From the NCBI GenBank assembly GCA_016930955.1, contig JAFGFR010000211.1, forward strand, positions 1-31,194: a DNA stretch of 31,194 bases. Direction: 5' to 3'. Source of the stretch: Victivallales bacterium (GTDB taxonomy: Bacteria > Verrucomicrobiota > Lentisphaeria > Victivallales > JAADHT01). The translations under genes were made by a program, and so were the position numbers. The notes beneath the pieces are model-generated. The model made no database searches, was not told the DNA's origin, and saw only the letters and a list, made by a program, of their open reading frames with translations. Position 1 is the stretch's first letter, and each line of letters starts with the position of its first letter. Positions 16,328 to 26,685 of this stretch are shown in pieces.

Positions 16328-17437
16328 ATGTTGCAAATGAAAATAGATATCATGATGGGAAAAAGGGAACGGGTCGAGGCCACTCTGAATCGCAAACCTG
16401 TCGATCGCTGCGCTCTGCTCGAGCAATTGAGCTACAATCCCCGGGTGATTTCCGACTGGACCGGCAAAGAAATAGAAGACTTCAGCTACACGTTGGACGA
16501 CATCTGCGAGGTAATCCGTCAGACCTGCGACCTGGTCATGCCGCCATGCGCACCGGAAGGGATTTCGCGTGTCACATCACCGGACGGATTTGTCACGCAG
16601 CATGACAACTGGACGAGTTGGCATGTCAGCCGCCCCTTCTGCGACGAACATGGGGCTGGCAAATGGCTCAGGGCAAGGACAGCCGGACTGCATGAAACAC
16701 CTTTCGACGCAATAAAAGCCCGCGAAGAGTATCGCCACAAAATGCTCTCCTTGCAGAAGAAGATCGCCGACACCGTCATTCTAGACTACAGTTGGACAGG
16801 CTTCTGCAGCGCCTACGATGCCATGGGTCTGGAGATCTTCACGTTTTTCCAGATCAAATACCCGGAGGTGCTGAAAGACTACATGGAAACGTCTGTGGCG
16901 TGCGAACTTCGCAGGATACATGCGGTGGCCGATCCTGCCCTTTCGCCTGTGATCCTTATCCCGGAGGATTTCGCCACCAAACAAGGGCCTATCTTTCCGC
17001 CGGAATTCCTGCATGAATATCATTATCCTTACATCAGTAGACTTGCGGCCGCCTGGCACGGACATGGAGTGAAGGCGCTATACCACAGCGACGGCAACTG
17101 GAAGAAGGTCATTCCCGATCTGATCGCCTGCGGAGTGGACGGTTTCTATTGTCTCGAACCCAATTGCGGAATGGATATAGTGGAACTGAAGAACACATGG
17201 CCGGAAATGGTCTGGGCCGGCGGAGTTGATGGAGTTGATTTGTTGGAACGCGGGACTCCGGAGCAGGTGAGAGCCGAAGTCCGCCGACAAATCCGGGAAA
17301 CCCGCGCGCTGGAGACCGGCGGCATGTTCGTGGCATCCTCCAGCGAGATCAACCCACCCATCCCGCCGGAGAACTTCCGGGCGATGGTCGAGGCAGCAAA
17401 GGAATTGAATCAGTGGTCTGTAATCAGTGGTCTGTAA
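16328..17437 (+). CDS. Uroporphyrinogen decarboxylase / MtaA-CmuA superfamily TIM-barrel protein
   Basis: N-terminal RERVEATLNRKPVDR, EDFATKQGPIFPP, YHSDGN, LEP, GGVD, GGMFVASSSE; lacks the HemE RQAGR signature. Confidence 0.82.
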   Translation: MLQMKIDIMMGKRERVEATLNRKPVDRCALLEQLSYNPRVISDWTGKEIEDFSYTLDDICEVIRQTCDLVMPPCAPEGISRVTSPDGFVTQHDNWTSWHVSRPFCDEHGAGKWLRARTAGLHETPFDAIKAREEYRHKMLSLQKKIADTVILDYSWTGFCSAYDAMGLEIFTFFQIKYPEVLKDYMETSVACELRRIHAVADPALSPVILIPEDFATKQGPIFPPEFLHEYHYPYISRLAAAWHGHGVKALYHSDGNWKKVIPDLIACGVDGFYCLEPNCGMDIVELKNTWPEMVWAGGVDGVDLLERGTPEQVRAEVRRQIRETRALETGGMFVASSSEINPPIPPENFRAMVEAAKELNQWSVISGL

Positions 17438-17442
17438 TCAGT
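17408..17442 (+). repeat. 14-bp tandem repeat AATCAGTGGTCTGT, 2.5 copies
   Basis: Exact units at 17408-17421 and 17422-17435 plus a partial unit; spans the stop codon of the upstream gene. Confidence 0.85.
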
Positions 17443-23478: not shown

Positions 23479-26400
23479 ATGGCTGGGAATATTGCTATTG
23501 TTGACATTAAGCCTGCCCTCTTTCTCAAAAAAGATGCCGGGATTCTGAAACAGTTGATTAAAGTAGTAGTAAGCAATAGGAATCCGGAACCTGTCGCAGG
23601 AGAACTGTCGCTGAAATTTGGCGGGCATGAGATTCTTCGGAAATTACCCGCCATCGCCGTCGGGGACTCGGAAATCGAGGCATTTATTCCGGAACATAAG
23701 AGGGAGACCAGGCTTGAAGCGTCTCTTACACTGGCAGACAAATCTCGTGGCATTAATATAGACACAATGAAACTGCAAGAAAGACACGCTTCCTCCTCCG
23801 CCAAGGCTACGGCGGACAGGAAAGACGTGAACTCCAACAGCAGGTTCAAAAAAGGCAAGCACTCAGCAGTAACTTACAAGACGCTTGTTTCACCTCCCCG
23901 TCACTGGAGGGTGCATGTTGTGCAGTTCTCGCACCATGACCTCGGCTATACGGGTTTGCCTTCGAATGTCCTCAGCAAGCATGCGCGCTATCTCGATCAG
24001 GCAATCGACATGGCTGAGGCGACAACGGATTATCCTGACGATGCCAAGTTCCGTATAGTCATCGAGCAGGCGTGGTCGGTGGATTATTTTCTGAAACATG
24101 CCAGGCCTGGGCGGGCGGAGAAAATGATCCGCCTGATGCAGTCCAGACAGTTCGAGCTTACTGCGCTTTTCGGCAATATGACCACGGAGATTTGCGGCCA
24201 CGAATCTCTTATGAGGACATTGTATCCGTCCTTCCGGCTGAAGAGGGAATACGGAATCCCGATTGTTTCCGCAGAACACAACGACATTACCGGAATCTCC
24301 TGGGGATTGTGCCGGGTTTTATGCGATACGGGACTAAGGATATTCTGTCCCGGCCTGCCGCTGTATTACAACTGGGTGGAGACCAAATACCAGTCATTCT
24401 GGGATCAGAAGGCTGTCTTCGGATTTGACAAACCGGGTGTTCCTGGTGCTTTCTGGTGGGAGGCTGCCGATGGCAAGAGGATCCTTTTCTGGTGCAACAA
24501 CAAAGGCTGCGGCGGAGGTGCCGATCTGAAATTCCCTGGATTGCCTGAAGCGCTTGAAGGTGCAGATGAAGTCGGCTATCCGGGAAATATTATGCGATGG
24601 CCCGTCCAGGGCGGAGGCCGCGACAATTCCCCCTACATAATGGGCTTTGCCGAATCGATTAGGAAATGGAATGAGACTTGGGAATATCCGAAACTCATCT
24701 CCAGCACCAATGCCCGGTTCTACGAGGAATTCAACAAGGAGGATCTCTCAGAGCTGCCGGTCCACAGAGGAGAACTGCCGGGACAGGATTATCCGGTCGG
24801 CGCAATGTCCACCGCCAGGTCTACTGCTCTGAACCGGAACAACCACCACGACCTGGTCACGGCGGAAAAACTTGCGGTTTTCGCAAAAACTGCAAGCGAT
24901 TATGAACACCAGGCCCACGAACTTGAAAATGCCTATGATGACACGAAGATATTCGAGGAACATGCCTGGGGGCATTCATACTCGCATGGCCCGGCAATGA
25001 TCGGAGCCGAAGCCGAAAAGGCGGTTCACGCATGCCGGGCGGCAGCATACGCCCACGATGTCAAACAAAAGGCGCTTGCGAAGATCGCAGACAATGTCCG
25101 CAAAAATAGCGATAACATTCATCTAATAGTATTCAATCCTTTGGCCTTCGCACGCAATGGCATTGTCCGCATGCCAATGCGCGAAATCGAGAACAGTGAA
25201 ATAATCATGGTCGAGGTGGATGGCGTTCAAACCTCTTCCAGTCTGTTTGGGCGCAAAGAACGGACTCATCTGGTTCTGCCGGAAGAAATGATAGCCGGAA
25301 ACTTCGAACTGATTGATGCGGAGACGGATGAAAAGATTGATTTTCAACTGTTGAAAATATCGGCTGATGATCCAGCCGTCGCCCATGCTGCGCAAAGGAC
25401 CGGTCTGGCGCAGGGCCGGAAAACATATTTCAATCACCCAGACGGCTGGGATCACGACTGCTGCTTCGTTGTAAAGGATGTTCCTGCGATGGGCTACAGG
25501 AGCTATCTGCTGCGGCAGATTGTCCCTGTCGGCCGCCAGACCTGCCAGACCTGTCAGACAGGTCTGACAAACCATGTCGAAAATGAATTCTACAGGATCA
25601 CTATTGATCATCATTCCGGAAGGATTGTCTCGATTATCGATAAGGATGCTCAGCGCGAGCTGATTGATCCCGATGCTCCGCACAGCTTTGGAGAGATCAC
25701 TGTCCGGTCACCATCCAATGATAAGGCCGTGACTGCCGTACCTGCCGGGGAAACCAAGATCGGGCACGGGAACATTGTTTCATCCATATCAACCGCTTGG
25801 TCTGCTCTCGGCCACCCGGTCATCCAGGAAAAAATCCTGCTGTATAAAGGGGTTAAAAGAATTGATTTCGCCGCCAGGATACTCAAGGATTCAAGCCCTC
25901 TGCTGGATGCCCATATTGCCTTCCCGTTTGCGATAAGAAAGCCTGAATTCCGCTATGAAGGTACATTGAATACCCTGAAACCGGTCAGAGACTTCCTTCC
26001 CGGCGCCTATTCGGATGCACTGACAATCCAGAACTGGGTCGAGGCAAGTGATGGTGATTTCAGCCTGATCTGGTCCAGCCATGACTCTCCTGTGGCGGCA
26101 CTTGGACAGCTCTGGCCGGGATATGTTTCGCCTGCCCATTCCTGCGTGGTTCCCGACCGTATGAGACATTCACCGCAAAAGGAGAAGGACTTCAAGCACG
26201 CATGGATCTATTCCACTCTTTTCAACAATAATTTCTGCACGAATTTTTCCGTGACTCAGAACGGCGAGTTCACATTCCGTTATTCCATGACTACTTTCCC
26301 GGAAAAATTATCCGCTTCAGAGGCTGTTATGGCAGGATACGATCTCTCGACACCCTTCGAGCATATCTTCAGCCCAGGTAAAAATCAGGGGAAACTTCCG

Positions 26401-26685
26401 CTGTTGGCATCATTCCTCAAAATTGAAAATCAAGACATTGTGTTGCTTAACGCAAAACTCGCGGATGACGGGAAGGGAATTGTCATAAGGTTCTGGAATC
26501 CCACTGGAAATTCCATCTCATCGGGAATCGAATGCCCCTTCCTTGACATTGACAAGGTGTGTGCAATCAACCCTGCGGAGGAACGGATCGGACAGGAATT
26601 TGAAGCCAGGGGAAACAGCTTCCAACTGGAAATCAAAAGATCTGAAATACTTTCCGCATATGTTTACAGGAGCATTGTCGCCTAG
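23479..26685 (+). CDS. GH38-like (alpha-mannosidase fold) glycoside hydrolase, no obvious signal peptide
   Basis: FSHHDLGY metal motif, EHNDITG, EEHAWG, VFNPL, ENEFYRI, LNAKLADDG...RFWNP C-terminal pattern. Confidence 0.8.
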   Translation: MAGNIAIVDIKPALFLKKDAGILKQLIKVVVSNRNPEPVAGELSLKFGGHEILRKLPAIAVGDSEIEAFIPEHKRETRLEASLTLADKSRGINIDTMKLQERHASSSAKATADRKDVNSNSRFKKGKHSAVTYKTLVSPPRHWRVHVVQFSHHDLGYTGLPSNVLSKHARYLDQAIDMAEATTDYPDDAKFRIVIEQAWSVDYFLKHARPGRAEKMIRLMQSRQFELTALFGNMTTEICGHESLMRTLYPSFRLKREYGIPIVSAEHNDITGISWGLCRVLCDTGLRIFCPGLPLYYNWVETKYQSFWDQKAVFGFDKPGVPGAFWWEAADGKRILFWCNNKGCGGGADLKFPGLPEALEGADEVGYPGNIMRWPVQGGGRDNSPYIMGFAESIRKWNETWEYPKLISSTNARFYEEFNKEDLSELPVHRGELPGQDYPVGAMSTARSTALNRNNHHDLVTAEKLAVFAKTASDYEHQAHELENAYDDTKIFEEHAWGHSYSHGPAMIGAEAEKAVHACRAAAYAHDVKQKALAKIADNVRKNSDNIHLIVFNPLAFARNGIVRMPMREIENSEIIMVEVDGVQTSSSLFGRKERTHLVLPEEMIAGNFELIDAETDEKIDFQLLKISADDPAVAHAAQRTGLAQGRKTYFNHPDGWDHDCCFVVKDVPAMGYRSYLLRQIVPVGRQTCQTCQTGLTNHVENEFYRITIDHHSGRIVSIIDKDAQRELIDPDAPHSFGEITVRSPSNDKAVTAVPAGETKIGHGNIVSSISTAWSALGHPVIQEKILLYKGVKRIDFAARILKDSSPLLDAHIAFPFAIRKPEFRYEGTLNTLKPVRDFLPGAYSDALTIQNWVEASDGDFSLIWSSHDSPVAALGQLWPGYVSPAHSCVVPDRMRHSPQKEKDFKHAWIYSTLFNNNFCTNFSVTQNGEFTFRYSMTTFPEKLSASEAVMAGYDLSTPFEHIFSPGKNQGKLPLLASFLKIENQDIVLLNAKLADDGKGIVIRFWNPTGNSISSGIECPFLDIDKVCAINPAEERIGQEFEARGNSFQLEIKRSEILSAYVYRSIVA
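23793..23820. repeat. REP-like hairpin inside the GH38 gene
   Basis: TCCGCC-AAGGCTAC-GGCGGA stem-loop; CGCCAAGGCTA core shared with the intergenic copy at 6346-6371. Confidence 0.65.
25535..25568. repeat. 9-bp tandem plus hairpin inside the GH38 gene
   Basis: GCCAGACCT GCCAGACCT GTCAGACAG GTCTGAC; GTCAGAC/GTCTGAC inverted pair; translates as RQTCQTCQTGLT. Confidence 0.7.

Follow-up and report, generated by a model that had tools for sequence, protein, structure and literature searches.

A recurrent sugar-enzyme cassette with an MttB-family protein in a Victivallales genome: candidate corrinoid-dependent catabolism of a methylated amino-glycoside

Introduction

Removal of methyl groups without oxygen is known from several corrinoid-dependent systems, and we compare them here with a gene cassette of a Victivallales bacterium, located at positions 16328-26685 of contig JAFGFR010000211.1 (31,194 nucleotides; "the window" below is this whole stretch of DNA). 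In the three-component O-demethylases (Mtv of Moorella, Odm and Vdm of Acetobacterium) a URO-D-fold protein works with an ATP-dependent activase and a small corrinoid protein, and the methyl group is removed without oxygen. The MtpB, MtcB and MtyB methyltransferases of Eubacterium limosum share a corrinoid protein that is not encoded next to the methyltransferase, as is also the case here. Methylated sugars are unblocked by aerobic systems: a P450 system demethylates 6-O-methyl-D-galactose in marine porphyran degraders, and MocDEF acts in the catabolism of rhizopine (3-O-methyl-scyllo-inosamine), for which the moc set uses GFO/IDH/MocA and xylose-isomerase-like TIM proteins. Glycans of plants, algae and microbes commonly contain methylated sugars, and the demethylases known for such sugars depend on oxygen.

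The window is contig C323 of a 2.7-Mb metagenome-assembled genome (MAG), 72% complete, obtained from a sediment metagenome. Its closest protein relatives belong to Victivallales/Lentisphaerota and a flavodiiron protein is encoded, the organism being an anaerobe-type Lentisphaerota MAG. A sequence-only reading of the window had proposed a catabolic pathway for a methylated amino sugar and knew of no described pathway with this gene set; literature searches agree, having found no published description of the gene set or the pathway.

Results

A conserved cassette recurs in distant genomes

Genes were assigned by listing open reading frames (ORFs) and by Pfam and NCBIfam profile searches. Six genes were detected on the + strand, divergent from an AraC-family regulator gene: a URO-D/MtaA-fold gene (URO-D1, 16328-17437, PF01208), a DegT-family pyridoxal phosphate (PLP) aminotransferase (17483-18673, PF01041), a non-pyrrolysine (non-Pyl) MttB-family TIM barrel, putative substrate:corrinoid methyltransferase (18670-20097, PF06253), a XylA-like TIM barrel (ORF from 20094, likely start 20127, to 21158; PF01261, TIGR02631), an AraA/FucI/SftI-like isomerase of 436 amino acids (aa) (21175-22485; no Pfam match, NF048012 with E 8e-41, fold by model) and a GH38-like glycoside hydrolase of 1068 aa (23479-26685; PF01074, PF07748 and PF17677 above cut-off). 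The profile searches bear out the six families and their arrangement as named in the sequence-only reading. Spacers of 45, -4, 29 and 16 bp separate the first five genes, the DegT stop overlapping the MttB start by 4 bp, and for these the earlier description as a tightly spaced run holds; it had overlooked a vapBC pair ahead of the GH38-like gene. An AGGAGG site precedes ATG 20127, which is most likely the start codon of the XylA-like gene.

Eighty genome loci from ~15 phyla were fetched via alignment of MttB relatives (39-89% identity) and analysed by tblastn with the window proteins and by all-against-all clustering of ORFs (loci are numbered with the prefix L below, contigs of the window's genome with C). 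The gene combination, whose failure to recur would have counted against the sequence-only reading, does recur (in L021 and L110, and without MttB in L127 and L128). Of all partners, DegT is met most often over the MttB tree as a whole, lying within 8 kb of MttB in 32 of the 80 loci. The same distance includes a 271-aa Hyi-like AP_endonuc_2 barrel in 21 loci, a 436-aa isomerase-like protein in 18, URO-D in 14, ABC permeases in 13, a GFO/IDH/MocA dehydrogenase in 12, a XylA-like protein (56-74% identical) in nine, GH36 in four and a GH38-like protein in three.

The window MttB falls in clade A of the maximum-likelihood tree (17 rows, support 100/99), which consists of a Lentisphaerota/Planctomycetota branch and a Bacillota/Atribacterota branch. 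The isomerase-like gene is directly downstream of MttB in 14 of the 15 clade-A loci with enough flank, and DegT is upstream of MttB in nine of 12. Locus L021, from a Ruminiclostridium MAG, carries DegT, GFO, XylA-like, MttB, isomerase and GH38-like (46% identical) genes in one run. The closest relative with flanks, L110 (MttB 85% identical), has the order AraC / URO-D (78%) - DegT (86%) - MttB - isomerase (62%), and L011 keeps this order as far as MttB, where its contig ends; the downstream gene in L110 encodes a 773-aa protein unrelated to the GH38-like one. Orthologues of the AraC regulator (47-50% identity) occupy the same place in L010 and L011, and an AraC regulator stands likewise in L110.

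A second search, anchored on the GH38-like protein, detected the order GH38-like (45%) - DegT (35%) - URO-D - isomerase (52%) in L127, with junctions of 23 bp, 15 bp and an overlap and with no MttB. L128 repeats this order, also without MttB, and L126 has the isomerase and GH38-like genes in divergent orientation. Altogether, GH38-like orthologues of 38-46% identity stand beside isomerase, DegT and methyltransferase genes in L021, L075, L126, L127 and L128. The conserved cassette is thus a GH38-like gene, DegT, the isomerase and a corrinoid-family methyltransferase fold (MttB and/or URO-D), and the recurrence supports membership of the GH38-like gene in spite of the vapBC insertion.

The vapB gene (ribbon-helix-helix type, 22584-22822, + strand, from the ORF listing) and the vapC gene (PIN, 22831-23253, + strand, PF01850) are flanked by spacers of 98 bp on the isomerase side and 225 bp on the GH38-like side. 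The pair has its own ribosome site and a GC content of 0.45-0.46 vs ~0.52 nearby. None of L021, L127 and L128 has it, their cassette genes being contiguous, and we regard the pair as an insertion into the cassette, outside the pathway. Selfish or foreign genes were seen in related cassettes as well: a 23S_rRNA_IVP-family gene between DegT and URO-D (L128:12505-12978) and an IS66 transposase between URO-D and LacI (L013:5848-7476).

A sample of 150 high-quality genomes from the window's own phylum contained no window-type MttB, which makes vertical inheritance within the phylum unlikely. Since the MttB tree also departs from the organismal groups, horizontal spread is the better reading. In MAGs labelled Akkermansia we observed a compact operon that encodes an HTH-cupin (helix-turn-helix) regulator and DegT together with Hyi-like, XylA-like and MttB-like proteins, the Hyi-like one being a TIM barrel; in L069 (labelled Akkermansia muciniphila) it covers 1442-7385, and that genome also encodes the small corrinoid protein and RACo.

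The MttB-like protein carries a rebuilt pocket

The MttB-like protein is the only MttB in the genome. It belongs to the MttB superfamily (PF06253, 294 bits vs a cut-off of 25, residues 3-464) and not to MttB proper, its TIGR02369 score being 364 bits vs a cut-off of 525 and its ORF uninterrupted. Asp314 aligns with the Pyl position of MttB (7xcl).

The pocket was read by aligning the protein to MtgB (9yce) against the published active site (PMC13080624). MtgB binds its substrate through Y97, R312, H348 and F356; R312 is conserved in MtcB, MtpB, MthB and MtyB, and this Arg holds the carboxylate in every betaine-specific member (PMC13080624). The four positions are H95, H309, V344 and G352 in the window protein, which is not the betaine-specific pattern. 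H95, N96, H309 and W326 are invariant in 16 sequences of clades A and B and specific to this branch; D314 and N345 also differ from MttB and MtgB and are not fully invariant in the same alignment. The motifs common to MttB and MtgB (TSPL, NAEVL, D316, Q323, E327, N340) are kept. The pocket rebuilt in this way is polar, which is consistent with a sugar-like ligand and excludes carboxylated betaines.

A corrinoid protein and an activase are encoded elsewhere in the genome

A B12-binding_2 match (PF02607) was detected in 49 of 50 MttB-clade genomes, nearly always in a frame of 205-260 aa, and a RACo activase in 48 of the 50. The baseline is a set of 150 genomes from the window's phylum, of which ~43 carry the small corrinoid orthologue and 45 carry RACo, almost the same genomes (~29% and 30%); across 14 control genomes RACo matches were confined to Methanosarcina. 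Between phyla the small corrinoid protein keeps 46-60% identity, and MtgC, the partner of an MttB-family enzyme, is its best NCBIfam match. The flanks of 21 sampled corrinoid-protein loci carry PocR-AraC regulators (nine), RACo (five), homocysteine S-methyltransferase (four), DUF1638 (four) and also URO-D.

The window's genome encodes a corrinoid protein closest to MtgC (C44, 227 aa) and a RACo (C328, 637 aa). Both further parts of a three-component system are thus present at the genome level, and neither is in the locus. Together with the co-occurrence, this supports, and does not prove, use of a corrinoid protein in trans by the MttB-like protein. The only stand-alone Pterin_bind gene of this incomplete genome (C18) was considered as a methyl-tetrahydrofolate (methyl-THF) methyltransferase and rejected, being FolP. 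In about one third of the six-frame RACo_C_ter matches, which come from many genomes, a single in-frame TGA, TAA or TAG stop is present and the frame is shorter than the usual ~630 aa; these may be alignments running past the natural stop, or split or recoded genes.

URO-D-fold proteins are numerous in the genome

URO-D1 has the general URO-D fold (PF01208, 61 bits vs a cut-off of 23.9), and its AlphaFold2 (AF2) model has a predicted local distance difference test (pLDDT) value of 94. Its TIGR01463 score is 54 bits vs a cut-off of 235 for MtaA/CmuA; it is an H-S-D variant (H253-S-D255) where MtaA has H-x-C, the second Cys is missing, and the N-terminal ER...DR is MtaA-like. The earlier label, URO-D/MtaA-like, therefore stands for the fold and fails for the MtaA family score and the zinc Cys residues. 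Orthologues of 78-86% identity hold the same operon position in L110 and L011, and others of 57-60% identity lie near MttB in L087 and L013. URO-D1 may unload the methyl-corrinoid, or may be a second substrate methyltransferase.

H-x-C variants are the second URO-D-fold gene of the window (28595-29677, - strand, H-S-C-G) and the URO-D genes abutting MttB in L041, L079 and L082. The second gene is directly beside a sulfatase gene, the two together covering 28595-31082 on the - strand; here too the fold is next to a glycan-processing enzyme.

The genome has 25 scattered URO-D-fold paralogues (on 23 other contigs, for instance C241, C25, C305, C272, C106 and C75) vs one MttB, one corrinoid protein and one RACo. 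The neighbours of these paralogues include apiosidase-like, CE15 glucuronyl esterase, sulfatase, GFO/IDH/MocA and FGGY kinase genes, and further HpcH aldolase, LacI/AraC/IclR regulators and CobT.

The aminotransferase, isomerases and glycoside hydrolase

DegT is a member of its family by PF01041 (219 bits). Its best solved relative, over the full length, is 5k8b (KdnA, 8-amino-3,8-dideoxy-manno-octulosonate transaminase; E 4e-56), and the PLP lysine is kept, the Lys of FSFNFFK aligning with the KdnA lysine. The second-best match is glutamine:scyllo-inositol transaminase. DegT thus appears closest to a free-sugar transaminase, a free rather than nucleotide-linked substrate being suggested only by this nearest relative.

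The XylA-like protein matches class-I xylose isomerases in the PDB (E 1e-52) and TIGR02631 (E 6e-63), where its 213 bits vs a cut-off of 447 place it outside XylA. It keeps H54, D57, E181, K183, E217, H220, D255 and D257 of the Streptomyces xylose isomerase; D287 and K289 lie past the alignment end and were taken from GLDVK, a conserved motif. Of the seven ligands of the two-metal site (E181, E217, H220, D245, D255, D257 and D287), five align directly; at D245 all eight orthologues have His instead, followed three positions later by Asp (signature VHLNDQ). By these residues the protein is a predicted xylose-isomerase-type enzyme of a distinct subfamily, not XylA.

The AF2 model of the 436-aa isomerase (pLDDT 91) has L-arabinose isomerase as its top Foldseek match (template-modelling score TMq 0.89) and L-fucose isomerase at 0.81, so it belongs to the L-arabinose/L-fucose isomerase superfamily. 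The catalytic Glu/Glu/His/His of Escherichia coli AraA are E306, E333, H350 and H450. In the hhalign alignment to this protein (probability 95), E306, H350 and H450 correspond to the invariant E275, H313 and H407, and an invariant D299 is beside the gap opposite E333. The nearest named family, SftI (NF048012), scores 140 vs a cut-off of 700, and AraA 22 vs 622; the protein is outside both. Proteins of this kind make up a large, uncharacterised family of their own, whose genes accompany those for GH38-like, DegT and MttB or URO-D proteins. Alignment and model support retention of the catalytic metal sites in both predicted isomerases.

The three GH38 Pfam domains of the GH38-like protein are above cut-off and weak (38, 43 and 22 bits), and a sequence search of the PDB returned no relative. 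An SHHD motif resembling the GH38 His-x-Asp metal motif is readable in the translation. The protein is very divergent; it has no signal peptide and is read as cytoplasmic.

Gene context suggests an amine-bearing sugar

Four clade-A operons (Bacillota, Atribacterota) continue into a PotD/YdcS-like binding protein (in L024, for example, at 12806-13966), a PotA-type ATPase and two permeases. The ATPase scores 363.5 vs a cut-off of 355.6 with TIGR01187, which assigns it to the polyamine-type importers rather than to those of the sugar type. Levoglucosan dehydrogenase, which is a sugar 3-dehydrogenase, is the nearest relative of the GFO partner; in L014 (Victivallaceae) a NagB-like protein, a class II aldolase and a PfkB kinase are encoded as well; and the Lentisphaerota relatives are surrounded by GH42, GH2, GH28, GH36 and BNR genes. 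The Pot-type importers together with these genes suggest a cationic, amine-bearing sugar or sugar-like compound from a glycoside.

Control region, expression and neighbouring genes

The AraC-family regulator (cupin sensor and HTH_18; 15305-16066, - strand; PF12833, PF00165) is separated from URO-D1 by a divergent control region (16067-16327). A promoter-like site with an extended -10 was detected there at 16280-16309 on the + strand, and a ribosome site, AAGGAAGG, stands ahead of ATG 16328 on the + strand; both are consensus matches only. The promoter and terminator scan gave counts near the shuffle background, from which the transcript is not defined. The Rfam scan of the window and of the corrinoid and RACo contigs gave neither a riboswitch nor any other RNA.

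One 160-nt contig from two small metatranscriptomes of the source study matches DegT exactly (17487-17646). It is compatible with expression and silent on co-transcription.

A DUF1846 (PRK13663) gene (26931-28442) begins 245 bp after the GH38-like gene and does not recur in the related loci. At 28076-28570 contigs of the source metagenome have a word depth of ~250 vs ~7 nearby, and joints and many loose ends fall at 28461-28568; a short repeated mobile element at the 3' end of the DUF1846 gene would be expected to give this pattern.

Discussion

We favour, with about even confidence, the reading that the locus is a horizontally spread catabolic cassette for a glycoside with a methylated, most likely amino, sugar, which would be demethylated anaerobically in a corrinoid-dependent way. 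The sequence-only reading gains partial support from the recurrence of the combination, the corrinoid parts encoded in trans, the free-sugar relative of DegT, the retained metal sites and the context pointing to an amine-bearing sugar; its order of demethylation, transamination and isomerisation is putative.

Each pathway step is assigned from family membership and gene context. The divergent AraC regulator would switch the operon on. The cytoplasmic GH38-like hydrolase would release the modified sugar, and the MttB-like protein would pass its methyl group to Co(I) of the stand-alone MtgC-like corrinoid protein (C44), kept reduced by the RACo/RamA-type activase (C328). URO-D1 would move the methyl group from the corrinoid to an acceptor, or would be a second substrate-side methyltransferase. 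The KdnA-like DegT, acting on the free sugar, could then replace its freed primary amine by a carbonyl, and the XylA-like and AraA/SftI-like isomerases could convert the resulting aldose to a ketose for central metabolism.

Several observations weigh against this catabolic, corrinoid-dependent pathway. No corrinoid protein was detected within 10 kb of MttB in the 80 loci (~1.1 Mb of flanks, by tblastn and a DxHxxG scan), URO-D1 is without the zinc-binding Cys residues of MtaA, and the search of this genome, which is 72% complete, gave no MtrH-type methyl-THF methyltransferase. A single phylum supplied the co-occurrence baseline, and genomes that are related do not count as independent cases. 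Thirty of the 80 loci are without any partner gene, some of them with full flanks, and the expression evidence is a single 160-nt contig. The characterised non-Pyl MttB enzymes, to our knowledge, all use quaternary amines, and one demethylation of a quaternary amine would leave no primary amine for DegT. Either the donor would be a protonated secondary N-methylamine, unprecedented for the family, or the methyl group and the amine would be on different atoms.

Anaerobic glycan degraders may have a wider arrangement, which we advance tentatively and with some doubt: a hub and spokes, in which one MtgC-like corrinoid protein and one RACo would serve many substrate-specific methyltransferases in dispersed sugar loci, here the 25 URO-D paralogues and the one MttB. 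The MttB clade would be the first of its family to act on a sugar-borne N or O, and the cassette would stand for the catabolism of a widespread methylated amino-glycoside.

The alternative that survives best, although we consider it rather unlikely, is an O-methyl ether on a neutral sugar, for example a methylated mannose released by the GH38-like enzyme. The corrinoid demethylation would be the same, and DegT would belong to an amino-sugar branch of its own. In anaerobic O-demethylases the donor-side methyltransferase usually has the URO-D fold, a URO-D gene takes the place of MttB in L127 and L128, and the URO-D paralogues of the genome stand beside apiosidase-like, CE15 glucuronyl-esterase and sulfatase genes. 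Hydrolases of neutral glycans (GH42, GH2, GH36, GH28) surround the relatives, and the two clade-specific His residues with the Asp at the MtgB substrate site could hold an ether-activating metal. However, every characterised MttB-family enzyme that we know of takes its methyl group from nitrogen; DegT, the most frequent MttB partner (32 of 80), is retained even where URO-D replaces MttB; and the Pot-type importers argue for a cationic amine.

It is also conceivable, and in our view improbable, that neither the MttB-like nor the URO-D-like protein is a methyltransferase here, both being TIM barrels taken over for sugar chemistry that needs no corrinoid, the co-occurrence of corrinoid protein and RACo reflecting a shared anaerobic glycan-degrading lifestyle. 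The zero count of corrinoid genes in the 80 loci fits this, as do the replacement of all four glycine-betaine-binding residues, the missing zinc-binding Cys of URO-D1, the tight coupling of MttB to isomerases by overlapping or near-abutting genes, and the ~30% of phylum genomes that have the corrinoid protein and RACo without this MttB. Against it, the co-occurrence is 96-98% vs the 30% baseline, the nearest named family of the corrinoid protein is MtgC, partner of an MttB-family enzyme, and the family-wide motifs of MttB and MtgB are kept.

Biosynthesis of an N-methylated amino sugar for a surface glycan or natural product is very improbable: DegT and GFO/IDH/MocA are typical of amino-sugar biosynthesis (PDB matches), but no glycosyltransferase, nucleotidyltransferase or exporter is present, the surrounding genes encode ABC importers, glycoside hydrolases, an aldolase, a kinase and regulators of the LacI/ROK/AraC types, and the nearest DegT relative acts on a free sugar. 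That the genes are unrelated neighbours, as the interrupting toxin-antitoxin pair and the 30 of 80 MttB loci without partner genes might suggest, is hardly credible, given that at least five phyla show these families again, ordered alike, on one strand and with overlapping genes; the context data contradict both chance and biosynthesis.

If the proposed methylated amino-glycoside catabolism is true, the MttB family would extend beyond betaines and trimethylamine, the large unannotated URO-D-like expansions in Lentisphaerota, Planctomycetota and other glycan degraders would be explained, and vitamin B12 demand would be tied to polysaccharide turnover in sediments, digesters and guts. The cassette offers reagents for finding the substrate: the PotD-like binding protein, the AraC sensor and the soluble enzymes.

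Among the described systems, MttB of Methanosarcina barkeri (PDB 7XCL/7XCM) is the best-scoring solved relative (E 6e-56, full length), and differs from the window protein, which has no amber codon and has Asp314 at the pyrrolysine position. The MtgB/MtgC/MtgA system of Desulfitobacterium hafniense (PDB 2QNE, 9YCE) has an enzyme of the same superfamily without pyrrolysine (PF06253; E 2e-54 to MtgB), and the window genome likewise encodes an MtgC-like corrinoid protein and a RamA/RACo activase. However, the window protein is ~30% identical to MtgB, keeps none of its four substrate residues, and is encoded in a sugar operon with DegT, isomerases and a glycosidase, not in a betaine-type context.

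For the sugar enzymes, KdnA acts on a free sugar at the terminal carbon; it is biosynthetic, belonging to Shewanella lipopolysaccharide, whereas the window is without a KdnB-type oxidase, and because the identity is moderate its substrate is not transferable to DegT. AraA, L-fucose isomerase and SftI have the fold and the catalytic/metal residues in common with the 436-aa isomerase, with scores far below the cut-offs. Aryl methyl ethers are the substrates of the O-demethylases, whose corrinoid protein is usually encoded in the same gene cluster, whereas the window points to glycoside and sugar catabolism. The P450 and MocDEF systems are alike in that a methylated (amino) sugar or cyclitol is unblocked before ordinary catabolism; theirs need oxygen, whereas the window organism is anaerobe-type and the methyl group would leave on a corrinoid.

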